NCBI GenBank assembly: GCA_964551525.1 | Contig: CAZKCH010000001.1 | Span: 1,831-65,830, forward strand | Direction: 5' to 3' | Origin: an uncultured Candidatus Saccharibacteria bacterium | GTDB taxonomy: Bacteria; Patescibacteriota; Minisyncoccia; Minisyncoccales; GWA2-46-15 | DNA length: 64,000 nucleotides | Shown: in pieces, positions 3,074 to 59,320 of the stretch | Position numbering within the stretch: the stretch's first letter is position 1 | Layout: the number at the start of each line of letters is the position of its first letter | Notes under the pieces: model-generated | The model's input: the letters and a program-made list of their open reading frames with translations, nothing else | Databases searched by the model: none | What the model was told of the DNA's origin: nothing | Made by a program: the position numbers and the translations under genes

Positions 3074-3202
3074 TTCAAAAATCCAAATCCCAATTCCAAT
3101 ACTACCAATAATACCAATGACCAATCTCCAAAGTTTTGATTATTGGAATTTGGATATTGGAAATTGGAGTTGGACATTGGTTTTTTGATAGTCATTGATG
3201 TT

Positions 3203-4663
3203 ATGCGTATTCATCTAATCGGCATCGGCGGCATCGGCGTTTCCGCCTTGGCGCGGCACTATTTGGCGCAAGGCGATTTTGTCACTGGCTCGGATCTGAC
3301 CAGGTCGGAGATTACCGATGGCTTGAAAAAAGCAGGGGCAAGGGTCTTTATCGGTCCGCATAAAACCGCCAATTTATCTTGTGCTAAGCTAAGCCTAGCA
3401 CAACCGAATTTAGTGATTTACAGCCCAGCGATCGAAAAAAATAATCCCGAATTAAAACAAGCATACAAAATATCCTCCTTCGCTAAAGCTTCGAAGGACA
3501 GGCAAAATACAAAAGTAAAAAGTTATCCTGAGGCACTTGGCGAGCTGACGAAAAAATACTTTACCATTGCCGTTTGCGGCACTCACGGTAAGGGCACCAC
3601 TACTGCCATGATCGCTCTTATCCTGATTAAAGCCGGCCTCGACCCAACCATTATCATCGGCACGAAACTTAAAGAATTTAACGACAGTAACTATCGACAT
3701 GGGCAGTCAAAATATTTATTAATCGAAGCAGATGAATATAAATCATCTTTTTTGAGTTATTGGCCAAAAGCGATTGTCATCACCACTATTGATGCGGATC
3801 ACCTTGATTACTTTAAAAATTTAGGAAACATTATTAAAACATTTGGAAAGTTTGTTAGTCAACTGCCCAATGATGGTATTTTAATAACAAATAAAAACGA
3901 CGAGAACACTCAAAAAGTAATTACCAAGTACCAAGTACCAAGTACCAATAAATTTTCAATTACCAATTTTCAATTAATAAAATCGAAAGACGTCGAAAAA
4001 CTTAAGCAAGTTTTAAAACTGCCGGGCGAGCACATTCTCGCTGACGCTCTGGCAGCGTTGACACTGGCCCGCGTCCTGAAAATTCCAGACAGAATCAGTT
4101 TCAAGGCATTAAGCGAATATCGCGGCGCCTGGCGCAGGTTCGAAGAAAAAACAATGTTTCATGTTTCAGGTTTTAAGTTTCATGTTATTTCTGACTACGC
4201 CCACCATCCGACCGAAATCAAAGTCACTCTGGACGCGGTTAGACAAAAATATTCTGATAACCGAATTTGGTGCGTTTTCCAACCTCATCAATACCAAAGA
4301 ACTTTTTATTTATTCAAGGATTTCATCGATGTCTTGGCCAAGGCGCCCATCGATAAGCTCATTTTAGCCCCGATCTACAGCGTGGCCGGCCGCGAAAGCC
4401 AAACCATAAAAAATAAAGTGAATTCGCAAGAACTTGCTCGGGCTATCCAAAATAAATACCCTCCTTCGTCCCGCTTCGCGGGACTTCGGCGGGCAGGCAA
4501 AATACTAAATACTAAATACAAGATACAAAATACAGAAACCATTTATATTGCGTCTATACCGAAAATAGCTAAATACCTGAGAAAAAATCTGCAAGGCAAT
4601 GACATCCTCGTCATCATGGGCGCTGGGGATATTTACAATCTGTTAAAATTGATGGAAAATTAG
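3203..4663 (+). CDS. murC: UDP-N-acetylmuramate--L-alanine ligase
   Basis: MRIHLIGIGGIGVSALA N-terminal Rossmann motif and a GTHGKGTTT P-loop (Mur ligase). The ATG at 3203 is the likely true start (the track ORF begins at 3143). Contains low-complexity in-frame inserts. Confidence 0.8.
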   Translation: MRIHLIGIGGIGVSALARHYLAQGDFVTGSDLTRSEITDGLKKAGARVFIGPHKTANLSCAKLSLAQPNLVIYSPAIEKNNPELKQAYKISSFAKASKDRQNTKVKSYPEALGELTKKYFTIAVCGTHGKGTTTAMIALILIKAGLDPTIIIGTKLKEFNDSNYRHGQSKYLLIEADEYKSSFLSYWPKAIVITTIDADHLDYFKNLGNIIKTFGKFVSQLPNDGILITNKNDENTQKVITKYQVPSTNKFSITNFQLIKSKDVEKLKQVLKLPGEHILADALAALTLARVLKIPDRISFKALSEYRGAWRRFEEKTMFHVSGFKFHVISDYAHHPTEIKVTLDAVRQKYSDNRIWCVFQPHQYQRTFYLFKDFIDVLAKAPIDKLILAPIYSVAGRESQTIKNKVNSQELARAIQNKYPPSSRFAGLRRAGKILNTKYKIQNTETIYIASIPKIAKYLRKNLQGNDILVIMGAGDIYNLLKLMEN

Positions 4664-7143: not shown

Positions 7144-9330
7144 ATGAGCTCTGGCCAAATAATCTCTCTGCTCATAGCGGGCATCAACACTCTTTTAGCT
7201 ATTTTTGTATTGGGGAAAAATCCAAAAAGCATATCTAATCGCTATTTTTCTCTTTTTACTTTTTCGGTTACTTTTTGGGGAATAGGATTATTAATGACGC
7301 AAATGACCGGAAAGATGATATGGGCAGAAATAACTTTCGCTTTTGGAATCTTAATGGGGCTCAGTTTTGTTTTATTTTCTTATGTTTTCCCTCGGACGGA
7401 TAAAAAAATTCCTCTTTATGTTTATATTATCTTTTTAATCCCCGCCGTCTTGTTTTTAGGACTACTGCCATCCGGTTCTATCATTAAAGGATTCCAGATT
7501 ATCGGAGACAGCTTGAAGCCAGAATTAGGACCTCTCTACGGATTCTTTATGAGCTATGTTGTCCTTTCCGTAATTTACGGCATCGGTCTGCTCATAATAA
7601 GGTGGCGCCGCGCCACAGGGATAACAAAAATGCAATTTCGTTATTTGGGCGCCGGGTTTGCCTTATTCTCTATGGGAGCAGTCTTAACAAATATTATCTT
7701 ACCGGCAATTGGAATTTATCAATTCAATAACCTTGGCCCTTCTTTATCAATAACGGTTGTTATTTTCACGGCTTATTCTATTACCAGATATCGTCTAATG
7801 AATCTCCGTTTGGTTTTAGGGAAAAGCGCCGTTTATCTTTTATCTTTCTGCGCTACCATCGTTTTGATTTTTATATTCACTTACTTTTTAGACATATCTA
7901 AAGAACTTTTTGTTTTAAATACCACCAGCGTCAGTATACTAATTTTAAGCATGATTTTATTGCAATTTATCCTTGGAATCGGAAGGAAATTTGCCGCCAA
8001 ATATTTCTATTCCTCTTTCTACAATTATCAAGGAACATTAACAGAATTAGGGAGAAAACTAACTCAAGTTTTGGACATAGATCTTTTAAGTGATTTGTTT
8101 TCGGATACTCTTTCGCAAACAATGAAACTGGATCGAATCGTTGTCCTTTTAAAAGACGCTGGTGGAAATTATCGAATCCAAAAAAACATCGGTTTCGATG
8201 GAAAAAACGGAATTTCTCTTGTTAGAAACAACTTTTTGACAGATTACTTAGAAGCCACACAAAACCTTCTATCTTATGAAGAACTGTCTTTGATTATTAA
8301 GGAGGTTACTGATTTAAAGAAAAAAAATGACCTTCAGGTAATAAAAACGAATATGGAAAGAATAGAAGCCATGGTTTGCCTACCCCTCTTAATAGAGAAG
8401 AAAATGATTGGTATGATTGTCTTGGGAAATAAGGCATCTAGAGATCCTTATTCCAAAGAAGATTTCGATCTTTTAACTAATCTGATGAATCAAGCATCGG
8501 TAGCATTACAGAATGCAAAACTTTTCTCGCAAGTTAAAGATCTTTCACAAAATCTCCAGGAAAAAGTGGATGAACAAACCAAAGAGTTGAAAGACGCTTA
8601 TGACGAATTAAAACGCTTAGATCAAGCCAAGTCGGAATTTATTTCCATTGCCTCGCACCAGTTGAGAACGCCTTTGGCGGCCATCAAGGGTTATATTTCA
8701 ATGATATTGGACGGCTCCTATGGCGTCATTGAAACCACCACTAAAAATACGCTGATAAAAGTTTCCCAAGCCAATGAACGGCTGGTGAAAATAGTCAACG
8801 ATCTTTTAAACTTGTCCCGCATTGAAGGCGGCCGGATGAAATTCGAACCGCAACTGATCTCTTTGGAAAAACTGATTGAGGGAGCGATCAATATCTTTAA
8901 GATCGAGGCGCAGAAAAAAGGCCTCACTCTAAAATTCCAAAAACCAAAAATACCATTACCGAAAATAATGGTTGACCAGGAAAAATTAGACCAGGCGATT
9001 TTCAATCTGATCGATAATGCCATCCATTATACCGAAAATGGTAGCATCGCCATAAGCGCGGAGGTGATTAAAAATAAAGATAAAGAATCCGGAAGCAAAG
9101 CGCTGATAAGAGTTCAGGACACCGGCCGAGGGATGGAAACGAAAGAATTAGGCGCGCTTTTTGAAAAATTCTCCCGCGGTAAAGAAGCGGGCCGATTTTG
9201 GACCGAGGGCACGGGCTTAGGGCTTTTTGTGGCAAGAAAGTTTGTGGAAATTCATCGAGGCCGGATTTGGGCGGAATCAGAAGGAGAAGGCAAGGGATCA
9301 ACGTTTATAATCGAATTACCAATTAATTAA
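7144..9330 (+). CDS. sensor histidine kinase (multi-TM sensor, GAF-like, HisKA, HATPase_c)
   Basis: About 8 N-terminal TM helices, a coiled coil, an H-box (ASHQLRTPLAAIKGYI), an N-box (NLIDNAIHYT) and G1/G2 boxes (DTGRGM, GTGLGL). Confidence 0.8.
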   Translation: MSSGQIISLLIAGINTLLAIFVLGKNPKSISNRYFSLFTFSVTFWGIGLLMTQMTGKMIWAEITFAFGILMGLSFVLFSYVFPRTDKKIPLYVYIIFLIPAVLFLGLLPSGSIIKGFQIIGDSLKPELGPLYGFFMSYVVLSVIYGIGLLIIRWRRATGITKMQFRYLGAGFALFSMGAVLTNIILPAIGIYQFNNLGPSLSITVVIFTAYSITRYRLMNLRLVLGKSAVYLLSFCATIVLIFIFTYFLDISKELFVLNTTSVSILILSMILLQFILGIGRKFAAKYFYSSFYNYQGTLTELGRKLTQVLDIDLLSDLFSDTLSQTMKLDRIVVLLKDAGGNYRIQKNIGFDGKNGISLVRNNFLTDYLEATQNLLSYEELSLIIKEVTDLKKKNDLQVIKTNMERIEAMVCLPLLIEKKMIGMIVLGNKASRDPYSKEDFDLLTNLMNQASVALQNAKLFSQVKDLSQNLQEKVDEQTKELKDAYDELKRLDQAKSEFISIASHQLRTPLAAIKGYISMILDGSYGVIETTTKNTLIKVSQANERLVKIVNDLLNLSRIEGGRMKFEPQLISLEKLIEGAINIFKIEAQKKGLTLKFQKPKIPLPKIMVDQEKLDQAIFNLIDNAIHYTENGSIAISAEVIKNKDKESGSKALIRVQDTGRGMETKELGALFEKFSRGKEAGRFWTEGTGLGLFVARKFVEIHRGRIWAESEGEGKGSTFIIELPIN

Positions 9331-9336: not shown

Positions 9337-10014
9337 ATGGCGAAATTATTTTTATTAAGGCACATTAAGTCCCAGTGGAATGAAGAAAATCGATTCACCG
9401 GTTGGGTGGATGTGCCGTTAGCCAAGGACGCAAGCAATAAAGCCAAAGAATTGGCTGATAAAATATTCCAATTAAAAATTGATAGGATTTATTCCTCGCC
9501 GCTGTTCAGGAATGAAGACACGGTTTCCAAGCTGTTCGATTTCAGCAACGAAAAGTACCCGGTTTTCGTTCATCTTGATGGGGGAAAAATGGAAAATTGG
9601 AGCCGCTTCACCAGCGCAAACAGAAACGAAGTTCCGGTCTTTGTCACCGAGAACCTAAATGAAAGGCATTATGGCAAGCTACAGGGGGTGAATAAAACCG
9701 AAGCAATGAAAAAATACGGAGAAGATATGATCCGCCTTTGGCGCCGGAGTTATAAAGCCGCGCCGCCGGGAGGGGAAAGCTTAGCCACGGTCTGCAAAAG
9801 AACAAATCTTTTTTATCGCCGATACGTTGAAAAAGATCTTCGGGAAGGAAGAAATGTCCTAATTGTTGCCAGTCATAATTCTTTAAGGTCGATTGTCAAA
9901 TATATTGAGAAAATCTCTGATAGTGATATCATTAACACGGAAATCCCTTATGCCGGTTTAAGAGAATATGAATTTGATAATTCATTAATAATAAAAAACA
10001 AAAAAGAATTATAA
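9337..10014 (+). CDS. histidine phosphatase family protein (phosphoglycerate mutase-like)
   Basis: LLRHIKSQWN matches the RHG catalytic motif of the PGAM family. Confidence 0.6.
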   Translation: MAKLFLLRHIKSQWNEENRFTGWVDVPLAKDASNKAKELADKIFQLKIDRIYSSPLFRNEDTVSKLFDFSNEKYPVFVHLDGGKMENWSRFTSANRNEVPVFVTENLNERHYGKLQGVNKTEAMKKYGEDMIRLWRRSYKAAPPGGESLATVCKRTNLFYRRYVEKDLREGRNVLIVASHNSLRSIVKYIEKISDSDIINTEIPYAGLREYEFDNSLIIKNKKEL

Positions 10015-10015
10015 T

Positions 10016-10978
10016 ATGAAGAAGAAATTAATTATCGGGATCGCTGTTTTAGCCGTTATCGTAGCCGTTGTTTTACTAATCAAAGATAACCGCCTTCCTC
10101 TTGGTTGGCTTTCTATTAAATCAAGGGCGGAACGAGTCGGAGAAGAAGCGCTCAGTTTTATCAACGAAAATCTTCTTAGCCAGCAAGGCATCACTGCTTC
10201 TTTAAATAAGGCCTCTGACGACGGCAGTGTTTACAAGCTGGAAATAAAAATCGGCGATCGGGACACGATTGTTTACGTTTCCAAAGACGGCCGGTATCTT
10301 TTCCCAGAGGGCATTGAATTGAAACCAAGCCCGTCTCCGTCTGCCAGTCCCTCAGCGCCGCCCGTCAGCGCCAAACCAGAGATAAAACTTTTTGTGATGA
10401 GTTATTGTCCTTTTGGTTTGCAGGCGGAAAAGGCCTATTTGCCGGTTTACGAATTACTGAAGGATAAAGCGGACTTCGGCATTTATTTCGTTGATTACAT
10501 TATGCACGGCAAGCAAGAAATCGATGAAAATCTAAGGCAATACTGCATTCAGAAAGAACAAACAGCGAAATTCAGCGCCTATCTTGACTGCTTTACCAAA
10601 AGCGGGGAATCGGCCTCGTGTTTAACCCAAACGGGAGTCAATCAACAAACCATGGCCAATTGCGTGGCAGAAACCGATTCTGCTTTTAAAATCACCGAAC
10701 TCTATAACGATGAAACCACTTGGTTGAGCGGCACTTATCCGCAATTCAATGTCCAGAAAGAACTTAACGACCAATATAATGTTGGCGGTTCGCCAACCAT
10801 TGTTATTAATGGCCAAGAAATGTCTTTAGCCAAGCGCTCGCCGGAAGCGTTTAAAAATCTTGTTTGCCAGGCATTTGAAACAAGGCCAGCAGAATGCGAC
10901 CAGGAACTTTCCACGGCCGTTAGCGAATCGGGATTCGGCAGCGGCAGCGGCAATAGCTCGGGAGGGGAATGCCAATAG
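10016..10978 (+). CDS. membrane-anchored thioredoxin-fold (DsbA-like) protein with Ser/Pro linker
   Basis: N-terminal TM helix, a PSPSPSASPSAPP linker, and a thioredoxin-like segment with CPFG plus several more Cys residues. The redox motif is atypical. Confidence 0.35.
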   Translation: MKKKLIIGIAVLAVIVAVVLLIKDNRLPLGWLSIKSRAERVGEEALSFINENLLSQQGITASLNKASDDGSVYKLEIKIGDRDTIVYVSKDGRYLFPEGIELKPSPSPSASPSAPPVSAKPEIKLFVMSYCPFGLQAEKAYLPVYELLKDKADFGIYFVDYIMHGKQEIDENLRQYCIQKEQTAKFSAYLDCFTKSGESASCLTQTGVNQQTMANCVAETDSAFKITELYNDETTWLSGTYPQFNVQKELNDQYNVGGSPTIVINGQEMSLAKRSPEAFKNLVCQAFETRPAECDQELSTAVSESGFGSGSGNSSGGECQ

Positions 10979-14296: not shown

Positions 14297-14899
14297 ATGT
14301 CTAAAAAACAAAACATCAAAAATCTGGCGTCTTTCTTCTTTGAGATCGGGAACATGAGGAAAATTCCCCGAGCCCACCAACAGACTCTTTTAACTCAGGA
14401 CTTGAGCGATAATATCGCCAGCCATTCTTTTCGCACAACTATTATTGGCTATTTTTTAGCTAAAGAGTTAAAGGCTGATGCCGACAAAGTAATAAAAATG
14501 TGCCTTTTACACGACACAGAAGAAACTCGTTGCGGTGATCAAAACTGGGTACACAAAAAATACATTAAGGTTTTCGAGAATGAAATCAGACAAGAACAAC
14601 TCGGTTCGTTGCCAAACAATAAGGAATTATTGGAATTATCCAAAGAATATGACGAAAGAAAAACCTTGGAGGCAAAAATCGCTAAAGATGCCGATCTATT
14701 AGATCAAATACTAATCTTAAAAGAATATTGCCAACAAGGAAACCAAGAAGCAGGACATTGGCTGAAAATAGAAGAAAAGACAGAATGCCAGCAGGAAAAA
14801 CTACTTTTTAACCAGTTATCAAAACAAATCTCTAAGGAAATTAAGAAGCAGGAACCAAGCGACTGGTGGGCCAACGCCTGGACACCCAAACGCCGTTAA
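14297..14899 (+). CDS. HD-domain hydrolase (YfbR-like 5'-deoxynucleotidase family)
   Basis: H...HD metal-binding pattern (ASHSFR, LLHDTEE). Confidence 0.55.
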   Translation: MSKKQNIKNLASFFFEIGNMRKIPRAHQQTLLTQDLSDNIASHSFRTTIIGYFLAKELKADADKVIKMCLLHDTEETRCGDQNWVHKKYIKVFENEIRQEQLGSLPNNKELLELSKEYDERKTLEAKIAKDADLLDQILILKEYCQQGNQEAGHWLKIEEKTECQQEKLLFNQLSKQISKEIKKQEPSDWWANAWTPKRR

Positions 14900-14900
14900 A

Positions 14901-14930
14901 AATAAGCTCGCAGAGACCCGTTCTCTGCAA
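14901..14930 (+). repeat. REP element (hairpin cagaga-cccgt-tctctg) with conserved aagctcg prefix
   Basis: The same about 25 nt unit recurs at 15671-15692 and 59252-59312. It sits immediately after a stop codon. Confidence 0.7.
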
Positions 14931-14938
14931 ATCTATAT

Positions 14939-15664
14939 ATGCCGTATAGAAAAGAAGTATTCGCTAACGAGGAAATTTATCATATCGCCATAAGAAGCAT
15001 TGACGACAATTTACTATTCAAAAATATTGATGATTATTATCGAGGAATTTTTTCTATATACGAGTTCAACACAGATAAATCAGTGGTCATTCGCGAACGT
15101 CGTCATGCACGATTACGAATAAAAGAAATGCTGAAACAAATACCTAAAAACAGCATTTCCGTAATTGATCCTCGAAACAAATTAGTAGGAATCATGGCTT
15201 TCTGTTTTATGCCAAATCATGTCCATTTATTGTTAAGACAAATCAAAGACAACGGTATCACAAAATTCATGAGAAAGCTTGGCGCCGGTTATGGCGGATA
15301 TTTCAACAAAAAATATAGCCGCAAAGGGCATGTTTTCCAAAACAGATTTAATGCAGTCCACGTCAAAACAGATAATCAATTAAGAGCCGTATTAATTTAC
15401 ATTCACACTAATCCTATATCTTTAATAGAACCTGGATGGAAAATGGGAAAAACCAAAAACCTAAAAGAAACAACTAAGTTTTTAAATAATTATAAATGGG
15501 TAAGTCATCGCGACTATCTCGGCATAAGTAATTTTCCGTCAGTCACTGAAAGAGAATTTCTCTTAGAAACAATGGGTGGGATAAATGGTTACCAAAACGC
15601 CATCAAAGATTGGATAAAACACAAAAAAGAAATCAAGGGTTTTAATAACCTCGCCATAGAGTAA
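14939..15664 (+). CDS. REP-associated tyrosine transposase (RAYT; IS200/IS605 TnpA-like HUH Y1 transposase)
   Basis: HUH motif (MPNHVHLLL) and the catalytic Tyr motif YIHTNP typical of RAYTs. Flanked on both sides by REP hairpins. Confidence 0.75.
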   Translation: MPYRKEVFANEEIYHIAIRSIDDNLLFKNIDDYYRGIFSIYEFNTDKSVVIRERRHARLRIKEMLKQIPKNSISVIDPRNKLVGIMAFCFMPNHVHLLLRQIKDNGITKFMRKLGAGYGGYFNKKYSRKGHVFQNRFNAVHVKTDNQLRAVLIYIHTNPISLIEPGWKMGKTKNLKETTKFLNNYKWVSHRDYLGISNFPSVTEREFLLETMGGINGYQNAIKDWIKHKKEIKGFNNLAIE

Positions 15665-15670
15665 AAATAA

Positions 15671-15725
15671 GCTCGCAGAGACCCGTTCTCTGTAAAATCT
15701 ACAAAGAACGGGTCTCTGTTTTTCT
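15671..15725 (+). repeat. REP pair in inverted orientation (BIME-like), also terminator-like
   Basis: cagagacccgttc ... gaacgggtctctg is a perfect 13-bp inverted repeat around a 17-nt loop, followed by ttttt. Confidence 0.7.
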
Positions 15726-18132: not shown

Positions 18133-19107
18133 ATGCTGAACATCATTACTATCGGCTCAGCCACTAAAGATATTTTCCTTGACGCCTCGAAATCGAAAAA
18201 AGGGCAAGGTTTTTACTTCCCTCTGGGGGGGAAGATCGAATTAGAAAACATTAAAACCTTTATTGGCGGCGGGGGAGTCAACACGGCAATAACTTTTAGC
18301 CAACAAGGCCTTAAAACCGGCTTTTGCGGCGTGGTGGGCCAGGACTTAGCCGGCCAGACCATCTTAGACGAACTCAATGAAGCCGGGATCGAAACCACTC
18401 TGGCCAAAGTGAAAAACAATCGGCAAACCGATCTGGGCATAATTTTTCATGCCAAGTCAGAAAGAACAATCTTGCTTCATCACGATGCTTCCCGAAGCTT
18501 TAATGAAAACGACGTTGACTGGCCGACGCTAAAAGATACTTCATGGCTTTATCTCGCGCCTCTTTGGAGCAAAACAACTGGTTTAACCTTAAAAATAATT
18601 GATTTTGCGGAAAAGAATAAAATTAAAATCGCCATTAACCCGAGCCAAGAACAACTGGCTTTGTCTGCTTTTAAAAAAACGATTGGAAAAATTGATGTTT
18701 TACTTTTAAATAACGATGAGGCAAGTTTTTTAACCGGCATTAAACCCTATAATGAAAAAGCTATTTTCTCCTCAATTTATTCTTGTGCTAGGCTTAGCCT
18801 AACACAAGATAAACGATTGATAACGGTGATAACTAAGGGCAAAGAAGGGGCGATTTGCTTCGATGGTAAATATCTTTACAAGATTTCCGCTCCGCCGGTC
18901 AAAGTGGTGGACGCTACGGGCGCGGGTGATTCGTTCGGCTCCGGTTTTGTCGCCGGACTGATGCAAAAGAAAAATATCGAATCGTCATTGCAATTAGCCA
19001 TGGCCAATGCCATTTCTAATATTCAAGTTTTCGGGGCAAATAAAGGATTATTATCTAAAAACAGCAAACTGCCGGAAATAAAAATCATTAAAATCAAAAA
19101 TGATTAA
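18133..19107 (+). CDS. PfkB-family carbohydrate/nucleoside kinase
   Basis: DATGAGDSFGSGFVAGL ribokinase-family signature 2 and an N-terminal GG motif. Confidence 0.65.
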   Translation: MLNIITIGSATKDIFLDASKSKKGQGFYFPLGGKIELENIKTFIGGGGVNTAITFSQQGLKTGFCGVVGQDLAGQTILDELNEAGIETTLAKVKNNRQTDLGIIFHAKSERTILLHHDASRSFNENDVDWPTLKDTSWLYLAPLWSKTTGLTLKIIDFAEKNKIKIAINPSQEQLALSAFKKTIGKIDVLLLNNDEASFLTGIKPYNEKAIFSSIYSCARLSLTQDKRLITVITKGKEGAICFDGKYLYKISAPPVKVVDATGAGDSFGSGFVAGLMQKKNIESSLQLAMANAISNIQVFGANKGLLSKNSKLPEIKIIKIKND

Positions 19108-19846
19108 TCTGGACAAACTCACCACTAACGGCAAGGCCTTGTTTCTTGCTTACGATCAGGGCCTGGAACTAGGGCCTGATGATTTAGGCGATCAAGCCGT
19201 TAATCCGGAGTTTGTCTTGCAAATCGCCATTAAAGGCGGTTATAATGCCATTGTTCTCCAAAAAGGTCTGGCGGAAAAATATCAAGAACTGCAAGTAAAA
19301 ATACCATTAATCCTGAAACTCAATGGCAAAACCGAACTGAGCGGGGGAGACCCAATTTCCCGGCAAATTTGCTCAGTGGAAGAGGCCATTGCCTTGGGCG
19401 CCGAAGCAGTCGGCTATACCATTTATCCGGGAAGCGAGCACGAATCAATCATGATGGCTGAGTTCGGCCGCATCGCCGAACAAGCCCATCAAAAAAATCT
19501 GCCCGTTATTGCTTGGGTTTACCCACGAGGGAAAAGCATTCAAGACGAAACCGCGCCGGAAAATATCATTTATGCCGCCCGCGTCGGCTTAGAGATCGGC
19601 GCTGATATTGTTAAAATAAAATATTGCGGATCAGAGGAATGTTTCCGCGAAGCGGTCAAAGCCGCCGGCAAAGCCAAAGTCATGCTGGCGGGCGGGCCGG
19701 AAATAAGTGAAACCGATTTTTTAAGCAAGGTTGAGGCGGCAATGACGGCTGGCGCCATGGGCACCGTCGTAGGCAGAAACGTTTGGCTCAATGAAAATCC
19801 GCTGGCAATAACCGAGAAAATAAAAAAGATTATATTTAAAACATGA
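19100..19846 (+). CDS. class I aldolase, DhnA/FbaB-type (fructose-bisphosphate aldolase or ADH synthase-like)
   Basis: About 250 aa TIM-barrel aldolase blocks (VKIKY Lys region). Overlaps the PfkB kinase gene, as in archaeal-type glycolytic pairs. Ends with TGA. Confidence 0.55.
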   Translation: MINLDKLTTNGKALFLAYDQGLELGPDDLGDQAVNPEFVLQIAIKGGYNAIVLQKGLAEKYQELQVKIPLILKLNGKTELSGGDPISRQICSVEEAIALGAEAVGYTIYPGSEHESIMMAEFGRIAEQAHQKNLPVIAWVYPRGKSIQDETAPENIIYAARVGLEIGADIVKIKYCGSEECFREAVKAAGKAKVMLAGGPEISETDFLSKVEAAMTAGAMGTVVGRNVWLNENPLAITEKIKKIIFKT

Positions 19847-20028
19847 AGATAATTTTAGATAAAAACGTGTGCATCGGCTGCGGCGCTTGCGCTGCCATTT
19901 GCCCTCGCTATTTCGAAATGGGCAAAGACGGCAAATCAAGTGTTAAAAAATTGACATTTAAAGAAATTGACTGTATTAAAGAAGCAGCCGACAGTTGCCC
20001 CGTAAAGGCAATTTCTATCAATAAATAA
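19843..20028 (+). CDS. 4Fe-4S ferredoxin
   Basis: CIGCGACAAICP plus a second Cys cluster (CPVKA), 61 aa. Confidence 0.7.
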   Translation: MKIILDKNVCIGCGACAAICPRYFEMGKDGKSSVKKLTFKEIDCIKEAADSCPVKAISINK

Positions 20029-27067: not shown

Positions 27068-27611
27068 TTCGGGGAAGAATTATTTTTGAGGATTTGATCC
27101 TGGTCCAGGATGAACGCTGGCGGCGTGGATAAGGCATGCAAGTTGAACGCTCACCTGATTTTTCGCAAGAAAAGTTGGGTGGGAGTGGCAGATTGGTTAG
27201 TAACACGTGGGTAACTTACTCCGAGGACAGGAATAGTCCGCCGAAAGGCGGGGTAATTCCTGATAGAAATGAGGGGTCGCAAGACATTCTCATTTAAAAC
27301 CCGTCCCGCAAGGGATAGGGGCCACGGAAAAGGCCTGCGGCCTATCAGCTAGTTGGTGAGGTAACGGCCCACCAAGGCAATGACGGGTAGGGGAAGTGAG
27401 AGCTTGTTCCCCAACAAAGACACTGAAACATGGGTCTTACTCCTACGGGAGGCAGCAGTCGAGAATATTCGGCAATGGGGGAAACCCTGACCGAGCGACG
27501 CCGCGTGAGTGAAGAAGGCCTTCGGGCTGTAAAACTCTTTTTTGAGGGAAGAATCCCGAGCGCAAGCGAGGGATGACGGTACCTCAAGAATAAGGGGATG
27601 CAAATTCTGTG

Positions 27612-28481
27612 GTCGATCCGCTCAAAATCGTAAGCGAAGATCGACGGGCGCAGAATAGTCGTGGTAACACGGCTTAAGTAAACTTGGCTCATATGCTGGA
27701 AGCTATTTAAGAAGCGGCATTAGCCATCGGGCTAATTTTCTTAATAGTAATCAGCAGGGAAGTTCGATATAATGGAGAAATGAACAAAAAACAAAGAGAC
27801 ATAATTCTCGGAACATTATTGGGAGACGGGTGGATCGAAAAACAAGGGTCCATTCGTTTCAAACAATGTCTAAAGCATAAAGAATATATCTTTTGGCTAT
27901 ACGGGGAATTAAAAAATCTTTGTCGTAGTTCTCCCACACAAAGACGAGACAATAAACAATGGTATTTCCAAACCAGAAGCAATGACGAAACGCGCTTTTA
28001 TCGATCTATTTTTTATCGGGGTGTTAAAAAACGAGTCCCGAAAAATATAGGAAAATTGATAAAATCTGCACTAAGTTTGGCTATCTGGTTCATGGATGAT
28101 GGAACAATAGATTGGAGAGAAAAAAGTCATTATGCTTTCCGTCTAACTACAAATTGTTTCTCGATGAGCGATAACCGACTATTAATTGAAATGCTGAAAA
28201 AGAGATTTGGCGTTAAAACAACGCTCCAAACAACATTGATTAGAGGAAAAAGATATCCAAGGATATATATCGGCAAAGATGGAAGAGGAAAATTCGCAAA
28301 TCTAATAGAACCATTCGTATTAAATTGTTTTCGTTATAAATTACCTCCATTTCTTCGTAACCCCTCAGAGACTGTTCGGTGATGAACCGACGTTAACGGT
28401 GAAACATATTATCCGTTAAAATACGCCGAGCCCCGTTTCAAAAAAACGGGTGATGGTATAGTCCAATAAAATTATTTATTA
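27612..28481 (+). mobile_element. 16S intron 1 (probable group I) inserted just upstream of the GCCAGCAGCCGCGG block
   Basis: About 870 nt with no 16S homology, between ...gcaaattctgtg and gccagcagccgcgg. Contains an HE ORF and the shared aacggtgaaa motif. Confidence 0.6.
27780..28382 (+). CDS. LAGLIDADG homing endonuclease (two-motif)
   Basis: ILGTLLGDGWIEK and IWFMDDGTID LAGLIDADG motifs. Located entirely within the 16S insertion. Confidence 0.75.
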   Translation: MNKKQRDIILGTLLGDGWIEKQGSIRFKQCLKHKEYIFWLYGELKNLCRSSPTQRRDNKQWYFQTRSNDETRFYRSIFYRGVKKRVPKNIGKLIKSALSLAIWFMDDGTIDWREKSHYAFRLTTNCFSMSDNRLLIEMLKKRFGVKTTLQTTLIRGKRYPRIYIGKDGRGKFANLIEPFVLNCFRYKLPPFLRNPSETVR

Positions 28482-29032
28482 GCCAGCAGCCGCGGTAAGA
28501 CAGAATCCCCAAGCGTTATCCGGATTTACTGGGCGTAAAGCGTCTGTAGGCGCCTTGTTGCATCTTTGGTTAAATTTTCGGGGCTCAACCCTGAAGCTGC
28601 CAAAGACATGGACAGGGTAGAGGGCGTTAGGAGTTGACGGAACGGTCGGTGTAGGGGTGAAATCCATTGATATCGACCGGAACACCAAAAGCGAAGGCAG
28701 TCAACTAAGACGACCCTGACGCTGAAAGACGAAAGCGTGGGCATAAAAAAGGATTAGATACCCTTGTATTCCACGCCCTAAACCATGGAGACTGGCTTCT
28801 TGAAGTGTCGACCCTTCAGGTGGCGAAGCTAACGCGTTAAGTCTCCCGCCTGGGAAGTACGATGGCAACATTAAAACTCAAAGGAATAGACGGGGACTCA
28901 CACAAGCGGTGGATCATGTGGCTCAATTCGACAACAAACGAGGAACCTTACCAGGGCTAGAAACCGTAGCGGACAGCTTACTGAAAAGCGAGCTTTCTCA
29001 CAAGGACCGCTATGGCAGGTACTGCATGGTTG

Positions 29033-29857
29033 ATCCCTAAGCTATTGCTGCTTGGGATACGACCCTTTTCGCCGTAAGGCGAATCGAAAAACCAGCTCAT
29101 AACGGCGAACCCCTAACCAAAAACTTATGGTAAAATGAACTATAAGAACTAAGGCGGGCAATGCCGTGGGAAGTACGAACACTAATTTTTGCAATTTCTT
29201 TAAGGGAGAAGAGAATGCTTATATTCTCGGCCTTTGGTGCGCTGATAGTTATTGGTGGTCAAGTTCAGTAGGATTAAGCAATACCAATCCATATCTGATC
29301 GAAAGAACTAAAAAGTTTTTAAGAAACTTTTTCCCGGAAGTAAGAATAAAATTTAACAGAAACCATATTTTTGTTAATAGCAGGCCATTATTAAGAGACT
29401 TCGTTATTGCTAAAAACAATCTTGATCGTCTTAAAAAACCAGGTATGATTAAGGCCTATTTCGCCGGCCGTTTTGACGGCGATGGTTCTGTAGACAAGGA
29501 TTTCAGAAAAGATTGCCGAATAGTTTATGGCAAGCTGAACGAAGCAGAAATGGATAAAAAGCTATTAAGAAGAATGGGAATCAGAAAAACAAAAATATAC
29601 TATTACAAAAGCGCAAAAACATTTTGCTTATATATATCTCGTTACGAAACGAAAAAATTCTAGACAATATTTATATTCATTCTACAAAGTTGCAAAAATT
29701 AGTGTCCGTACCCCGTAGAGACTTAACTCTCGCCAAGGACCAATTAAGAGAGTTAGATGGCGGAAAAACCAAAAACCGTCATAAAACGCTGGCCTCCGCA
29801 TAATTATATGCGGAAGATGGCATAGTCCATACTACAAGTAATTGTAAGAAAATATGG
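29033..29857 (+). mobile_element. 16S intron 2 (probable group I) inserted in the CATGGTTG|TCGTCAGC region (near E. coli position 1050)
   Basis: Exon sequence catggttg ... tcgtcagcaggtcccgtgagg is restored after removing about 825 nt. Contains an HE ORF and ccgtgggaag / aacggcgaa motifs. Confidence 0.6.
29166..29663 (+). CDS. LAGLIDADG-type homing endonuclease
   Basis: YFAGRFDGDGSV motif and a degenerate first motif YILGLWCADS. Located within the 16S insertion. Confidence 0.6.
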   Translation: MGSTNTNFCNFFKGEENAYILGLWCADSYWWSSSVGLSNTNPYLIERTKKFLRNFFPEVRIKFNRNHIFVNSRPLLRDFVIAKNNLDRLKKPGMIKAYFAGRFDGDGSVDKDFRKDCRIVYGKLNEAEMDKKLLRRMGIRKTKIYYYKSAKTFCLYISRYETKKF

Positions 29858-30412
29858 TCGTCAGCAGGTCCCGTGAGGGTCTCCCTTAAATGGGGAAACC
29901 TGCGCAACCCTTACTCTGTGTTTTAAATGTCACAGGGAACTGCCCGGGATAACTGGGAGGAAGATGAGGATGACGCCAAATCAGCATGGTCCTTGATGCC
30001 CTGGGCCGCACACGTGATACAATGGAGCCGACAATGGGTTTGCCAAGCCGTAAGGCGGAGCTAACCCCATCAAACGACTCCTTAGTTCGGATTGAGGGCT
30101 GAAACTCGCCCTCATGAAGCCGGAATCGCTAGTAATCGGGAATCAGCTATGTCCCGATGAATATGTTCCTGAGTCTTGTACTCACCGCCCGTCACGTGAG
30201 ACGAGCCGGGAGTGGCCGAAGGCGCCTGTAAGGGCGACTAAGCCAAACTCGGTGAGAAGCACGAAGTCGTAACAAGGCACGCGTAGCGGAAGCTGTGCGT
30301 GGATCATTACTTTTTTTCTAGACTTTTTGTCTAGGAGCGTCGATCATAGTTGAAAATTGAGAATTCTATTTTCAACTGCGGACAATTGACTGGAATGTCT
30401 TTAAACTACAGT

Positions 30413-34603: not shown

Positions 34604-34676
34604 GGGCCGTTGGCGCAGTTGGTAGCGCGCTTCATTTGCAATGAAGAGGTCGCCGGTCCGAATCCGGCACGGTCCA
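34604..34676 (+). tRNA. tRNA-Ala (anticodon UGC)
   Basis: Acceptor gggccgt/acggtcc with G3:U70, anticodon loop tttgcaa, T-arm gccgg-tccgaat-ccggc. Confidence 0.85.
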
Positions 34677-34830
34677 CAGTAGTAGTTTTTTAGAATTTAG
34701 AGTTTAGTATTTAGAGTTTCATTTCCCAGGGGTGCCGGATCACCGCAGAGCGGGATCCCGTCTTACGGGATCACCGCGAAGCGGGACTCCGCTACGCGGA
34801 GGTGGCCAATCGGGACAAAAAATACAAAAA

Positions 34831-37820: not shown

Positions 37821-37877
37821 GGGGCGGCCTGCCCCGTAGTGAACTTGTTCTACTACAGGGTTTTTTGGTAGAGTACA
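37821..37877 (+). promoter_or_regulatory. hairpin/T-run + extended -10 (TGGTAGAGT) module
   Basis: ggggcggcctgcccc and gtagtgaac..gttctactac hairpins, tttttt, ggtagagt, then ATG 7 nt later. Confidence 0.5.
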
Positions 37878-37881
37878 ATAT

Positions 37882-38508
37882 ATGACTAGAAAAATTCATA
37901 AGAACTATTTTGATATAGTAATACTGCCAACAAAAGAAATTGGAGATTATTCTATTGCTCTAAGTAAACGGCTGCATAAATATGGATCAAATTCAATTTT
38001 AGGCAGAAAATCCTTTTTGCCCCATATTTCTCTTTATCACATTTCGATAAAAAAGAGGGATTTCGGGAATTTTATTGCTGAAATAGAGAAGATAACAAAT
38101 GATTTTAAGACGGGGCAGCTGGAAATCAAAGACCTGATATTATGGAAAGGCCATCGTTCGGTTCTTCTAATGACGAACAAACCGAAGTGGCTAAAAAATC
38201 TACACCTAAAAATAATAAAAGGGACATTAAAATATTTTAACTGGGATTACGGTATAGAGAAACTATGGAATCTTGATCACTGGTCTAAACTTATGCAGAA
38301 AAACATAAAACAATACGGAACGCCATTGGTAGGGAGATATTTTATGCCACACATCACATTAGGTGTATTAAATGATAAGAAGGGAGTAGTAAAGTTTTTT
38401 AACAAACTGAAGCTTAAAAAATATAAATTCAATCCTGTTTGTATCTACGTTTGCGAAATTGGCGAAGATCATACTTGTCAAAAAATAGTAAGAAAGATTC
38501 GTTTTTAA
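37882..38508 (+). CDS. 2H phosphoesterase superfamily protein (LigT/CPDase-like)
   Basis: Two H-x-S/T-x motifs (PHISLYH, PHITLGV) with appropriate spacing. Confidence 0.6.
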   Translation: MTRKIHKNYFDIVILPTKEIGDYSIALSKRLHKYGSNSILGRKSFLPHISLYHISIKKRDFGNFIAEIEKITNDFKTGQLEIKDLILWKGHRSVLLMTNKPKWLKNLHLKIIKGTLKYFNWDYGIEKLWNLDHWSKLMQKNIKQYGTPLVGRYFMPHITLGVLNDKKGVVKFFNKLKLKKYKFNPVCIYVCEIGEDHTCQKIVRKIRF

Positions 38509-38895: not shown

Positions 38896-38937
38896 TCGTA
38901 TAAACCCTGTATTTACGCGGGGTTTTTTGGTAGAGTA
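38896..38937 (+). promoter_or_regulatory. hairpin/T-run + extended -10 (TGGTAGAGT) module
   Basis: Stem around ccctgtatttacgcgggg followed by ttttttggtagagt. Confidence 0.45.
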
Positions 38938-38954
38938 AAAAATAGAAATAAACC

Positions 38955-39401: not shown

Positions 39402-39437
39402 CCGCTCAGGACAAAAAGGCGGTTTTTTGGTAAAGTA
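39402..39437 (+). promoter_or_regulatory. hairpin/T-run + extended -10 (TGGTAAAGT) module
   Basis: ccgc..gcgg stem, tttttt, ggtaaagt, then ATG 7 nt later. Confidence 0.45.
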
Positions 39438-39443
39438 AGCAAT

Positions 39444-40040
39444 ATGATAAAGGCAGCGATATTCGACCTTAACGGAATATTTATTCAAGGCCCAAGATTG
39501 AGCGATAGATTCAAGGAGATTTTTGGTATTGAAACAAAAGATTTCTTGCCCGTGTTAAAAGAGATCATGGCAAAGATAAGAAAACCAAATGCGGGGAGTG
39601 CTTTTAGCCATTGGAAACCATATTTGGAGAGATGGAATGTCAGTCTGACGGAAGAACAGTTCCTTGATTTTTGGTTCGGTGCTGAAAAAGAAATTCCAGA
39701 ATTAATTGAATTGGCAAAACAGATAAAAACGAAAGGTGTTAAAGTGTTTATCCTGTCAAATAATTTTGCCGAAAGAGCCGATTATTATAAAAAGAGTTCT
39801 CCGTTCTTAACAGAAATTCCTGATAAAGTTTATTATTCTTGGCAAACGGGTTTCGTCAAACCGGACCCACAAGCATTCAAGAATCTGTTAACCGAGAACA
39901 ATCTTGAACCCGAGGAATGTATTTATTTTGATGATTTAGAAGAAAATATTAAAGTGGCAAACGACTTAGGAATGAAGGCCTTCCTTTATAATAACGTTAT
40001 CGGCTTAGAGGAAGCCCTGAGGAACAATCGGGTAATCTAA
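39444..40040 (+). CDS. HAD-superfamily hydrolase (subfamily IA-like phosphatase)
   Basis: AIFDLNGIF (motif I variant DxN), ILSNN (motif II-like) and YFDDLEENI (motif IV). Confidence 0.55.
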   Translation: MIKAAIFDLNGIFIQGPRLSDRFKEIFGIETKDFLPVLKEIMAKIRKPNAGSAFSHWKPYLERWNVSLTEEQFLDFWFGAEKEIPELIELAKQIKTKGVKVFILSNNFAERADYYKKSSPFLTEIPDKVYYSWQTGFVKPDPQAFKNLLTENNLEPEECIYFDDLEENIKVANDLGMKAFLYNNVIGLEEALRNNRVI

Positions 40041-42925: not shown

Positions 42926-43805
42926 TCAAAAATACTCTTAGATTTAAACATTCCTATGAATACCATTCTTTATACTCTCACCAAAAGAAGCGGCTAATTC
43001 CTTAGGATTTTTTATTGCCTAAGCGACCGCTTCGAAGCGGTTTTTTCTTTTCTCGCGCCGGCATTGACGCTGAATAAAAAATTGGCGGTAAAACCGGATT
43101 GAGAACCAAAAAACGAAAGAAAAAGAACGGACTTTGACAACTTAATAAAATTCTAGCTAATTAAGTAAAAACTCCTTAAATTTACAGACGAATCTGGTGA
43201 ATCTAAGGAGGGTAAGAAATTGTGGTTACAACAGGTTGATGGCGGATGCCTTGGAAAGTCGAGGCGACGAAGGACGTGGCGTGACTGCGATAAGCTCCGG
43301 GGAGGTGTCAAGCAACCCGTGAACCGGAGATGTCCGAATCTGGAAACAGGGCCGCGCAAAACGCGGTCGACCCCGAGCGCAAGTGAGGGGTAGCGTACCT
43401 GGGGAAGTAAAACCTTTCAGTACCCAGAGGAAAATAAAACAATGTTTCGTGTTTTACACGAGATGATTCCCTTAGTAGCGGCGAGTGAAAAGGGAAATAG
43501 CCTAGAGTTCTAAGCTTCGCAAGAAGCTTGGAGCAGTTAAAAGAGAGCGACGCCTGAAGTTTTCCCCTTTATCCCGAGAGAAATCGAGGGACAAGGAGAA
43601 AACTTTGGAAAGAGTAAAAAAATTGATTGTTAGCCAAAGTCCCCTGGAAAGGAACACCAAAGAGGGTAATAGTCCCGTAGGCGAAAACGATCAATCTCTT
43701 AGTCTCTTAGTCCCGCAAGGGACAAATCTTAAGTACTATAGGGCATGATAAATCTATAGGAAGTCGGCTGAACTACTTTCAAGCCAAGGCTAAATACTCG
43801 ACTTT

Positions 43806-43844
<39 letters not shown>

Positions 43845-45279
43845 CAGCCCGGCGAGGGCGATGAAATAGTACCTGAAACCATCTAACCTACAAAGAGTCG
43901 GAGCCCCACAGAGCGCAAGCTTTTGCGGGGTGACGGCGTACTTTTTGGAGAACGAGCCAACGAGTTGTTGTGCATAGTTGTCTAACCCCGTTAAACGGGG
44001 GAAGGCAAAGCGAAAGCAAGCGTTAATAGCGCGACTAAAACTGTGCACCCCAGACCCGAAGCCAAGCGAGCTTGCCAGCGTCAGGGTGAATCCCGCCGAA
44101 GGGCGAGAAGAAGCCCGTACCTGTGAGCCGTGCAATACTCTAGGACGAACGGTGGCACGAAGAGAAAACCTAAACGAGCTTGGTAATAGCTGGTTCTTCC
44201 CGAAATAGCTTTTGGACTAGCTCCGCCGTATTATATTTTTCAGGGGTAGAGCACTGAAAAGAATATCGTGGCTTTTAGCCAGGTATTCTTATCAAACTCC
44301 GAATACTGAAAAATTCAGGCGGAAGTAAGAACCCGGGCGCTAAGGTCCGGGCTCAAAAGGGAAACAGCCCAGACCTTCATCTAAGGCCCCCAAGTTTAAA
44401 CTAAGTGCTAGGAAGGAAGTGATTTTCCTATGATAGTCAGGAGGTGAGCTTAGAAGCAGCTACCCTTTAAAAAGTGCGTAACAGCTTACTGATTAAGGAA
44501 TTTCGCACCAAAGATTAACGGGGCTCAAGTTTAACGCCGAAGATAAGGGCCCGCCCACATCTGCAAAGTTGTGGCGGGCGGTAGGGAAGCGTCCTTTGTT
44601 CAGCGAAGCCCCTCCGTAAGGTCGGGGTGGAGAACAAGGGAGTGAGAATGTTGGCATGAGTAACCGCAATCCGGGTGAGATCCTCGGACACCGAAAGCCC
44701 AAGATTTCCTTGGCAATGATTTTCAGCCAGGGGTTAGGCGGCCCTAACACTGCGACCAAATGGCCTCAGTGGATGGACAGCCGGTTAATATTCCGGCCCT
44801 TCGGTTGTTTTTCAAAAGGGTGACGCAATCAAAGTTCTTGATAGGATTATTGGATTTCCGAGAGTCGAGATTTATCTCGACCGTTTCAAGAATCAGATTG
44901 CCAAGAAAAACCCTGAGATTTAAAACAACCGGATCCGTATCGCAAACCGACACAGGCAGGCAGGTCGAGTAGACCAAGGTGAACGGGTGAAAGCTCCTGA
45001 AGGAACTCGGCAAAAAAGCTACCCGTAAGTTCGCAAGATGGGTTGCCCCGACCCGCAAGGGTTATGGGGCCGCAGCTAACGATTCCTTAGCGACTGTTTA
45101 TCAAAAACACAGGCTCCTGCTTAACTCGTAAGAGGAAATATAGGAGCCGAGACCTGACCAGTGCTGGAACGTCAAACTCGACGATTTTACCGCAAGGTAA
45201 AACTGATCGAGCTAAGCGCCAGTGAACGTCCGCTCTAACTCTGAGAGTGTTAAAGTAGCGTAACCCCTTGTCAGGTAAG

Positions 45280-46035
45280 AGATTTGCCTGTGCTCACAGC
45301 AGTGAGCAATAAATCCGGCTAATAACGGTGAAATCCTCGTTAGAGTCCCGCATCAAGGGCGGGACGTTGAAAACAAGATAATACCGTGGGAAGTCCCGTT
45401 AAACGGGACCCCGTAACGACTGACGTCGCCGATAGCTATTGGCGACCGAGATAGTAGATGCTATGATGAAATAACATTTACGGATTTAATGAAAAAAATA
45501 CTATCATATGCCGGCACTAAACAATTCTAAATCAAAGAAAAATCTACCAGTATATATTTCTGGTTATGTAGACGGGGAAGGATGCTTTAGTGTTTCCTTC
45601 TCAAAAAGAGAAAAACTGTCAGTGGGATGGGAAACAAAACCAAGTTTTGCCGTAGGGCAAAACTATGACCGATCAGAAGTAATTAAATTACTAAAGCTTT
45701 ATTTAAATTGCGGAAGTATAAGACGTGATTATTCTGACAAAACATTGAAATTCGAGGTCCGTAGTTTAAATGACCTGGTAGAAAAAGTAATTCCTCATTT
45801 TCGTCAGTACCCTTTATTATCAAATAAGCGAAAAGATTTCGATTTGTTTGTAAAAATATGCGGGCTGATGAAAAAAGAAAAACACCTTCAAAGAAGGGGA
45901 TTAAAAAAGATTGTCAATTTCGCGTATCAAATGAACGCAAGCGGTAAACGAAAATACAAAAAAGAGGAAATTACAAAAGAATTGTCTATTTGAAGATATA
46001 GTCTGCACCATAAGAAATTATGAGACAATGTGAAG
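45280..46035 (+). mobile_element. 23S intron (probable group I) in domain IV, GGGTAAG|TTCCGACC site (about E. coli 1917-1923)
   Basis: About 756 nt with no 23S homology restore the universal sequence when removed. Contains ctaataacggtgaaa and taataccgtgggaag motifs, shared with the other introns. Confidence 0.6.
45508..45993 (+). CDS. LAGLIDADG homing endonuclease
   Basis: LPVYISGYVDGEGCFSVSF is a classic LAGLIDADG motif. 161 aa, within the 23S insertion. Confidence 0.8.
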   Translation: MPALNNSKSKKNLPVYISGYVDGEGCFSVSFSKREKLSVGWETKPSFAVGQNYDRSEVIKLLKLYLNCGSIRRDYSDKTLKFEVRSLNDLVEKVIPHFRQYPLLSNKRKDFDLFVKICGLMKKEKHLQRRGLKKIVNFAYQMNASGKRKYKKEEITKELSI

Positions 46036-46568: not shown

Positions 46569-46601
<33 letters not shown>

Positions 46602-46730
46602 GTGAAGCAGCTCCCAAGGGTCTGGCTGTTCGCCAGTTAAAGTGGTACGTGAGCTGGGTTCAAACCGTCGCGAGACAGGTTGGTCCCTATCTACCGCAGG
46701 CGTTGAGTCTTGAGGAGAGTCTCGGACAGT

Positions 46731-54196: not shown

Positions 54197-54211
54197 TGTC
54201 ATAATGTCAAA

Positions 54212-56380: not shown

Positions 56381-56381
56381 T

Positions 56382-59315: not shown

Positions 59316-59320
59316 ATTAT

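Follow-up and report, generated by a model that had tools for sequence, protein, structure and literature searches.

A RAYT-like Y1 transposase gene and its cognate hairpins in a genome of the candidate phyla radiation

The DNA considered here is a stretch of 64,000 nucleotides (the window) from an uncultured Candidatus Saccharibacteria bacterium (contig CAZKCH010000001.1). It carries a gene for a Y1 transposase-like protein of the HUH type (14939–15664, + strand; 241 aa), bracketed by copies of a short hairpin repeat. The gene probably encodes a domesticated, vertically inherited Y1 HUH enzyme acting on single-stranded DNA (ssDNA), of the RAYT (a tyrosine transposase associated with REPs, repetitive extragenic palindromes) or TIRYT kind, together with its own cognate hairpin. 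The cassette of gene and hairpins, usually with a third hairpin placed in frame within the gene, recurs across many bacteria of the candidate phyla radiation (CPR). A preliminary description of the window had noticed the gene and its flanking hairpins; what goes beyond it is the conservation of the cassette throughout the family and the internal hairpin that lies in frame. A literature search, of incomplete coverage, turned up no paper that connects CPR or Patescibacteria with RAYT, REPtron or TnpAREP, and the cassette does not seem to have been described in CPR before.

The gene, its product and its flanking hairpins

By its sequence motifs and modeled fold, the product of open reading frame (ORF) 14939–15664 is a Y1 HUH enzyme, nearest to TnpAREP. 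The Pfam domain Y1_Tnp (PF01797) matches residues 53–157 (E = 3.1e-10), its 40.6 bits exceeding the cut-off of 23, so that the protein passed the profile search proposed in the preliminary description. No other domain was returned by the Pfam scan, in particular no helix-turn-helix (HTH) or DnaA_C-like C-terminal domain. The two motifs originally picked out, HVHLL (residues 94–98) and YIHTNP (residues 154–159), contain the HUH motif H94-V-H96 and the catalytic Y154-IHT-N158-P159, and are joined by the tail W187-V-S189 and by F133-Q134, where WQ is usual. The spacing of 58–60 residues from H94-V-H96 to Y154 lies within the ~58–67 that defines the superfamily. The form of the tyrosine motif, Y---NP, places the protein in TnpAY1 class 2, the TnpAREP-like class, and not in class 1, which has Y---Q (Quentin 2018). 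H94, H96 and Y154, as well as H15 and S189, do not vary among 101 sequences with identities as low as 28%, and within the close family (A1) N158 is invariant and P159 nearly so.

The kinship to TnpAREP was settled by hhalign and Foldseek. When the family was aligned to E. coli RayT with hhalign, HxH, (W/F)Q.RF and YI..NP all fell into register (E = 6e-4). An AlphaFold model built with a 101-sequence alignment reached a pLDDT of 91.8 (an earlier model from 37 close relatives, with a pLDDT of 54.8, was not used), and its first Foldseek match in the PDB was 4er8_A, the complex of E. coli TnpAREP and a REP hairpin (E = 4e-6); the IS608, ISDra2 and IS200 TnpA proteins came next, and all top matches had a probability of 1.0. 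A PDB sequence search with the single 241-aa protein returned nothing relevant, and a PDB profile search gave weak matches only, to ISDra2 TnpA and 4ER8 (E ~0.15–0.2). With Pfam, hhalign and Foldseek in agreement, the original identification of a 241-aa Y1 HUH gene stands.

The hairpins around the gene belong to one family. Its 36-nt unit, AAAAATAAGCTCG-CAGAGA-CCCGT-TCTCTG-TAAAAT, was found by repeat search at 14898, 15663, 59246 and 59283. An exact 24-mer, AAGCTCGCAGAGACCCGTTCTCTG, is present at 14904, 15669 and 59252 against a chance expectation of 0, and a 14-nt core occurs five times (14911+, 15676+, 15705−, 59259+ and 59296+) where 0.11 are expected; these counts confirm that the gene is bracketed by a single hairpin family, as had been proposed. 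A generic scan of the window for stems of at least 6 bp with a YCCGN loop found six hairpins against 0.16 expected. The upstream copy (14898–14933, +) consists of the 5' tail AAAAATAAGCTCG, the hairpin GCAGAGA-CCCGT-TCTCTGC at 14910–14928, and a 3' tail. This copy takes up the 39 nt that separate the preceding HD-domain gene, whose stop codon ends at 14899, from the transposase ATG at 14939, and its hairpin ends 10 nt 5' of that ATG. As ssDNA, this hairpin folds with −6.5 kcal/mol (z = −4.1). The downstream direct copy (15663–15698, +) begins within the stop codon and has its hairpin at 15676–15692. Beyond it lies an inverted partial copy (15705–15723, −; AGAACGGGTCTCTG on the + strand) that pairs with 15676–15689. 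The downstream inverted pair had been reported with 13-bp arms; the pair is indeed perfect, but its arms (15676–15689 and 15705–15718) measure 14 bp. They are followed by TTTTT at 15719–15723, and the pair folds as ssDNA with −17.9 kcal/mol (z = −7.9). Pair and T-run together form a terminator-like structure for the gene.

The gene is domesticated, under purifying selection and vertically inherited. Its neighbors in the window are the HD hydrolase gene and a phosphoenolpyruvate (PEP) synthase gene, and the order ACS–HD–gene–PEP synthase is preserved in a relative (L001) with 84% identity. In two others, with 77% (L002) and 74% (L123) identity, PEP synthase is still found downstream, and the ACS gene lies directly upstream. 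Among these three and the window gene, dN/dS (the ratio of nonsynonymous to synonymous divergence) is 0.07–0.11 at a dS of 1–2. In spite of this divergence, the relatives in the window's clade have the 17-nt flanking hairpin either intact or with a single base changed, and one L001 copy carries compensatory changes (CAGAGG-CCCGC-CCTCTG). Further afield (loci L124–L201, e.g. L126, L127 and L139), the gene recurs in a few fixed settings beside genes of replication, repair and division: ligA(BRCT)–gene–rodA/ftsW in ~20 diverged lineages, fpg–gene–holA in 4–5 loci, and unknown–gene–ftsZ in 4 loci. No second transposase copy exists in the window, and plasmid and phage searches found no close relatives of the protein. 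Because it is single-copy in the window, syntenic and under purifying selection, the gene is domesticated rather than an active insertion sequence (IS), as the preliminary description had favored. One of the arguments offered there, that IS200 subterminal structures are missing, is invalid, since the flanking hairpins are themselves the analogue of the IS200 subterminal hairpins.

The cassette in CPR relatives

A word-index search returned 1731 homologous proteins, and a full search yielded 428 clusters at 50% identity with E ≤ 1e-30; the relatives derive from metagenome-assembled genomes (MAGs) of Patescibacteria. Hairpins were surveyed around 81 non-redundant genes on metagenome and genome contigs, counting those with a perfect stem and a YCCGN loop located no more than 150 nt upstream or 200 nt downstream. 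An upstream hairpin was present in 61 of the 81, lay on the gene strand in 47 of these 61, and ended at a median of ~10 nt before the ATG. A downstream hairpin was present in 63 of the 81, was inverted in 49 of these 63, and mostly started 0–16 nt past the stop codon. Family-wide, the flanking hairpins were rejected as simple terminators, a T-run following only 5/61 upstream and 11/63 downstream hairpins. Even relatives with 38% (L205) and 31% (L206) identity have the same layout, each with a hairpin of its own (ggaagTCCGActtcc and aacggggTCAGAccccgtt, respectively).

The structure of the hairpin is clearly maintained. The core GAG.YCCG..CTC is invariant or almost invariant in 117 distinct hairpins, and the outer stem shows covariation. 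Two stem pairs had not been fixed by the search; they are formed in 109/117 and 97/117 hairpins, and double changes number 43 and 46. Shuffled sets score 0.200 for covariation, compared to 0.597 for the hairpins themselves, and the signal collapses in slid controls. Evolution is concerted among the copies at a locus. Over 19-nt cores, 17.6–17.8 of the 19 positions are shared within a locus, compared to 13.1 between loci (permutation, 0/5000). The hairpin is also specific to the paralogue. Both L151 and L185 contain a pair of diverged paralogues (identity to the query, 49% and 41%), and in L185 the two genes, 9 kb apart (10001–10720 and 19215–19937), each have their own hairpin type both in the flanks and internally. 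Of the L151 pair, the second gene is accompanied by hairpins of its own on the upstream side only. In L173, a tandem array of at least six cognate hairpins (8143–8525), resembling a bacterial interspersed mosaic element (BIME), is found just 3' of the gene.

The third, internal hairpin is found at +186 to +217 nt in 48 of the 81 genes. It occupies a single reading frame in 47 of these 48, in either orientation, and encodes R-G/D-P-x-S or R-G/D-R-A/V-S. In the AlphaFold model, this segment maps to a lower-confidence loop (residues ~63–80) between a helix (51–67) and a strand (83–90). The internal copy has decayed throughout the window's clade (the window, L001, L002 and L123). A probable remnant in the window (aacagcattTCCGTaattg, 15150–15170, +; codons ~71–77, KNSISV) is weakly identified, by its position and residual similarity; it keeps the start of the 5' arm and a TCCGT loop and no longer folds. 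Four further proteins (P0155, P0158, P0160 and P0174) match the family profile only from about residue 61–74 on, where the internal hairpin lies in other members or just past it, and their N-termini are unrelated. Possible reasons are a break or recombination event at this hairpin, decay to pseudogenes, or miscalled genes.

Dispersal of the hairpin away from the gene is rare. In 453 kb of related contigs, counting only positions more than 400 nt from any family gene, eight copies of cognate cores were found at four places, one of which is an array beside its gene. Cognate cores occurred at 0.09 per test against 0.002 for non-cognate ones, a ~47-fold enrichment at a low density. At ~1 site per 150 kb, the density is much lower than that of classical REPs; the window itself has five copies at two loci. 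Classical REP palindromes usually exceed 100 copies per genome. The second locus in the window (59246–59318) supplies the further copies that the preliminary description had suggested looking for. Its first copy (59246–59281, +; 97% identity to the reference unit) provides the final eight codons (KLAETRSL) and the stop codon of a DegT-type aminotransferase ORF (57965–59278). The second (59283–59318, +; 78% identity to the reference) is a direct repeat 37 nt beyond the first, and its hairpin, TACAGAGA-CCCGT-TCTCTGTA (59294–59314), lies 6 nt before the ATG of a FemAB-family ORF at 59321. With two direct copies, this locus is neither a REPIN nor a BIME. All four intact copies are on the + strand, which is the majority gene strand and has a positive AT skew; with n = 4, gene orientation confounds this agreement.

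A candidate variant hairpin, aaaagtgtgggaggTCCGAcctcccacactttt, lies in an intergenic region at 54210–54242 (+), with a 14-bp stem followed by a T-run and a folding energy of −16.6 kcal/mol. Its core, GGGAGG-TCCGA-CCTCCC, fits the family consensus GAGR-YCCGN-YCTC and resembles the type found in other lineages (GAGG-TCCGA-CCTC), not that of the window's own genome. It may be a variant member of the family or merely an ordinary terminator.

Possible mechanism and rival explanations

How might such a cassette work? The protein would recognize the folded hairpin on ssDNA, and the predicted substrate carries CAGAGACCCGTTCTCTG. The likely determinants are the conserved stem GAGR/YCTC and the loop YCCGN, comparable to the loop bases in the REPs of group 3 TnpAREP, small perfect hairpins that are read largely through those bases. 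Cleavage and rejoining would take place beside the hairpin, through Tyr154 and a metal site at H94/H96. The likeness of the copies at one locus may result from the enzyme's strand transfer, from gene conversion, or from selection that favors a single cognate sequence. Occasionally, the unit would be copied to other intergenic sites, as at 59246–59318 and perhaps at 54210. Such dispersed units would end up at gene boundaries, where a minority could act as terminators.

Several points weigh against a domesticated enzyme of the RAYT or TIRYT kind acting on its own hairpin. Binding, cleavage and strand transfer are attributed to the family protein by homology to E. coli TnpAREP, and the identity of the 241-aa protein to solved relatives is ~12–24%. 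The substrate is presumably DNA rather than RNA, and the route by which copies are homogenized, like the benefit to the cell, is likewise presumed. The top NCBIfam model, REP_Tyr_transpos (the RAYT equivalog NF047646), reaches 42.6 bits, where the cut-off is 80. The same model ranks first in NCBIfam for 37/37 close and 96/101 wider relatives as well, and the best E-value among the 101 scanned relatives was 6e-15, short of a strict RAYT assignment. A 5' tetranucleotide comparable to GTAG was sought across 126 flanking hairpins, and none was conserved (AGCT was present in 25/126). The hairpins abut start and stop codons, an arrangement that would suit a role at the RNA level too. The internal hairpin has been lost in the window and is therefore not essential. 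Finally, the dispersed copies are so few that repeat proliferation cannot be the main activity.

The last point would be accommodated if the cassette were a self-contained, ancient housekeeping module of CPR and not a device for spreading repeats. This is a possibility, if a doubtful one. The enzyme would then act on its own three hairpins, and its strand transfer would keep the 5' flanking, in-frame internal and inverted 3' flanking copies alike. The outcome could be a programmed switch, at the DNA level, of its own gene, or processing of ssDNA tied to lagging-strand replication and repair. The recurrent neighbors ligA, fpg, holA, rodA/ftsW and ftsZ point in this direction. If true, such a module would explain strong purifying selection in streamlined genomes of ~1 Mb in which the hairpin has almost never spread.

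It is unlikely that the hairpins serve mainly in control at the RNA level, whether as a structure in the 5' untranslated region, as terminators, or in autoregulation by a protein that binds its own mRNA or promoter DNA. In that case neither DNA cleavage nor mobility would be involved, and the dispersed copies, few as they are, would be terminators that have a sequence in common by descent. Such a role would agree with the position of the hairpins next to start and stop codons, the TTTTT after the downstream pair in the window, the very low dispersal, and the copy at 59294, which precedes a start codon with the spacing of the upstream copies of family genes. Furthermore, among the matches listed in a search with the core pattern, a T- or A-run adjoins 38% of hairpins in low-GC (mostly CPR) loci, versus 5% of the high-GC chance matches. 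On the other hand, T-runs are scarce after the flanking hairpins in the survey, and terminators have no need for the invariant GAG.YCCG..CTC core. A third copy placed in frame within the coding region, its evolution concerted with that of the flanks, also speaks against RNA-level control. The catalytic histidines and tyrosine, invariant to 28% identity, would argue for retained catalysis, and the solved relatives all act on ssDNA hairpins.

An active, autonomous IS of the IS200/IS605 type, with the two flanking copies as its left and right subterminal hairpins, is very improbable. The fold is that of a Y1 transposase, the cassette is compact (~830 bp), and in the window a same-strand hairpin lies on each side of the gene, as in IS608. 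However, there is one copy in 64 kb, its position has not changed over a dS of 1–2, ~20 diverged lineages share the ligA–rodA site, and dN/dS is ~0.1. The tyrosine motif is Y...NP rather than Y...Q, the NCBIfam model transpos_IS200 scores 13.4 bits, below its cut-off of 55, and in the family as a whole the downstream hairpin is inverted. A tnpB gene is absent, and the plasmid and phage searches mentioned above also count against mobility. A fortuitous association, in which a palindrome common between CPR genes happens to lie beside a transposase-like gene, can be given almost no weight. The core CAGAGRCCCGYYCTCTG is indeed present in many Patescibacteria MAG contigs without the gene within the 8 kb fetched, among the matches listed and with a degenerate pattern that is also matched by chance in high-GC genomes. 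Such an association is already contradicted by the hairpin positions, on both sides of and inside the gene in dozens of lineages, by the specificity of the hairpin sequence to locus and paralogue, and by the similarity test within loci.

Relation to known systems and genome context

The closest experimental counterpart of the proposed enzyme with its cognate hairpin is E. coli TnpAREP (RayT), a REPtron of TnpAY1 subclass 2.2 and Bertels group 2 (PDB 4ER8). Strand-specific binding and cleavage of the cognate ssDNA hairpin have been studied biochemically in the E. coli, S. maltophilia and Marinomonas systems. Like the CPR gene, that of E. coli is a single-copy, vertically inherited chromosomal gene bracketed by cognate palindromes; the two proteins share the Y...NP motif, the fold and the aligned catalytic motifs, and in both systems protein and hairpin co-evolve. 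The CPR protein is longer (241 versus 165 aa), with an added helix and loop before beta2 and a C-terminal helical tail of ~80 aa, and has FQ where the E. coli protein has WE. Its hairpin is short, with a perfect stem of 6–8 bp and a 5-nt loop, and has neither the bulge nor the GTAG foot of E. coli REPs. The dispersed copies number an estimated few per genome at most, compared to hundreds in E. coli.

Measured against a strict definition of RAYTs and REPtrons, the CPR cassette thus has the flanking cognate palindromes (upstream + and downstream + then − in the window; mostly inverted downstream in the family), the low copy number of the gene and the vertical inheritance. It falls below the NCBIfam cut-off, and its palindrome lacks the GT[AG]G foot; in the window the 5' tail reads AATAAGCTCG. 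No family in Rfam matched the hairpins. The REP/RAYT architecture put forward in the preliminary description therefore holds insofar as the protein is nearest to TnpAREP and its gene is bracketed, but the hairpins are not classical REPs, being footless and rarely dispersed. The system would work like a REPtron or TIRtron, yet as a strict RAYT it scores too low in NCBIfam, has no GTAG foot and probably falls short of a high copy number.

A second point of comparison is the TIRYT/TIRtron (Di Nocera 2013), which corresponds to TnpAY1 subclass 2.1 (Quentin 2018) and to RAYT group 1 (Bertels 2017). The signature given for subclass 2.1 by Quentin et al. (2018) comprises NHVH or NH[YF]H; FQ or W[EQ]; Y[IV]HLNP; an SS tail; and a median length of 238 aa. 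The window protein, with NHVH, FQ, YIHTNP, W-V-S (WSS in relatives) and 241 aa, agrees with it, as does the consensus of the wider CPR family, NHFH...FQG...YIH.NP...WSS; the assignment was made by inspection of the published motif signatures, not with the authors' hidden Markov models. In TIRYTs, too, inverted repeats border the gene at a short, constant distance; elsewhere these repeats are absent or no more than moderately abundant, and some TIRs are self-complementary. However, Quentin et al. (2018) found no REP-like hairpins beside subclass 2.1 genes, whereas each CPR flank is a clear, covarying hairpin; the REP label applied at first is at odds with protein motifs that fit a subclass reported to be REP-less. 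The CPR flanks carry GAGR-YCCGN-YCTC and not the GGGGWSAS of TIRs, the C-terminal HTH or Bac_DnaA_C-like domain was not detected by Pfam in the window protein, and the CPR cassette has an in-frame internal copy. CPR are absent from those surveys.

Internal palindromes are a feature of TnpAY1 subclass 2.4 (RAYT group 4), in which REPs are inserted in the tnpAREP gene between HuH and Y, with variable length. In both cases a cognate palindrome lies within the coding sequence, in a surface loop, and leaves the frame intact. The CPR genes differ in having one hairpin, at a fixed codon and in a fixed frame, N-terminal of HuH (codons ~65–72) and conserved to ~31% identity; subclass 2.4 has WQ, YIxNNP and no tail, whereas the CPR protein has FQ, YIHTNP and an SS tail. 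The resemblance to the TnpA proteins of IS200/IS605 (IS608, ISDra2) lies in the fold, the catalytic residues and the short subterminal ssDNA hairpins that the IS enzymes recognize. The CPR protein is ~90 aa longer, has Y...NP instead of Y...Q, and is encoded by a single-copy gene at a fixed position with mostly inverted hairpins and no tnpB.

Why would CPR bacteria retain such a cassette? Most work on domesticated RAYTs concerns Proteobacteria, where hundreds of REPs confound the picture. In CPR, the same class of enzyme is found at fixed loci, under strong purifying selection, in tiny genomes with almost no dispersed repeats. Its retention in these repeat-poor genomes makes a host function independent of repeat proliferation plausible and testable. 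The family also bridges existing categories, with a protein like that of subclass 2.1, cognate hairpins like those of REPtrons, and an intragenic copy of the kind so far known only from subclass 2.4, where it is located elsewhere in the protein. With its short perfect hairpin, invariant core and paralogue-specific variants, it is a compact system for the reading of hairpins by HUH enzymes and a possible source of orthogonal ssDNA-tagging enzymes.

The remainder of the window is in keeping with the CPR-like genome originally proposed, as borne out by a split 16S gene, an insert in the 23S gene, the lack of linkage between the two, and Patescibacteria relatives. The 16S gene is in two pieces (27090–27642 and 28362–30314), with ORFs in the interruptions (27780–28382 and 29166–29663). 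The 23S gene is 3517 nt long and contains an ORF (45508–45993); the rRNA regions as a whole span 27090–30314, 43219–46735 and 47855–47963. Some 13 kb with tRNA and protein genes separate 16S from 23S, and the rRNA insertions are typical of CPR.

Several other repeats are present in the window. A second, GC-rich palindromic repeat, CCCxCCTTCGTCCCGCTxxGCGGGACTxCGGCGGGCAxGC, occurs at 4459–4498 and 59543–59582, in both cases in frame, in a Mur-ligase-like ORF (3143–4663; "PPSSRFAGLRRAGK") and in the FemAB-family ORF (59321–60364; "PAFVPLCGTTAGKP"). It looks like a family of intragenic palindromic insertions that has no relation to the RAYT hairpin. A heptamer of the AAATACT type forms short arrays at 4501–4533, 57284–57316 and 34676–34719; one of these directly adjoins the GC-rich palindrome at 4459, and another is in frame in a Mur ligase ORF (56358–57962). 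A 31-nt palindromic sequence, TTGTGCTAGGCTTAGCCTARCACAAGATAAA, is present at 3373–3403 and, in the opposite orientation and 94% complementary, at 18783–18813. Lastly, a 25-nt repeat, GGGTTTTTTGGTAGAGTAnAAnATA, occurs three times (37858–37882, 38920–38944 and 39420–39444), and two of its copies lie immediately 5' of ORFs of ~200 aa (37882–38508 and 39444–40040), where they are possibly a shared promoter or leader.

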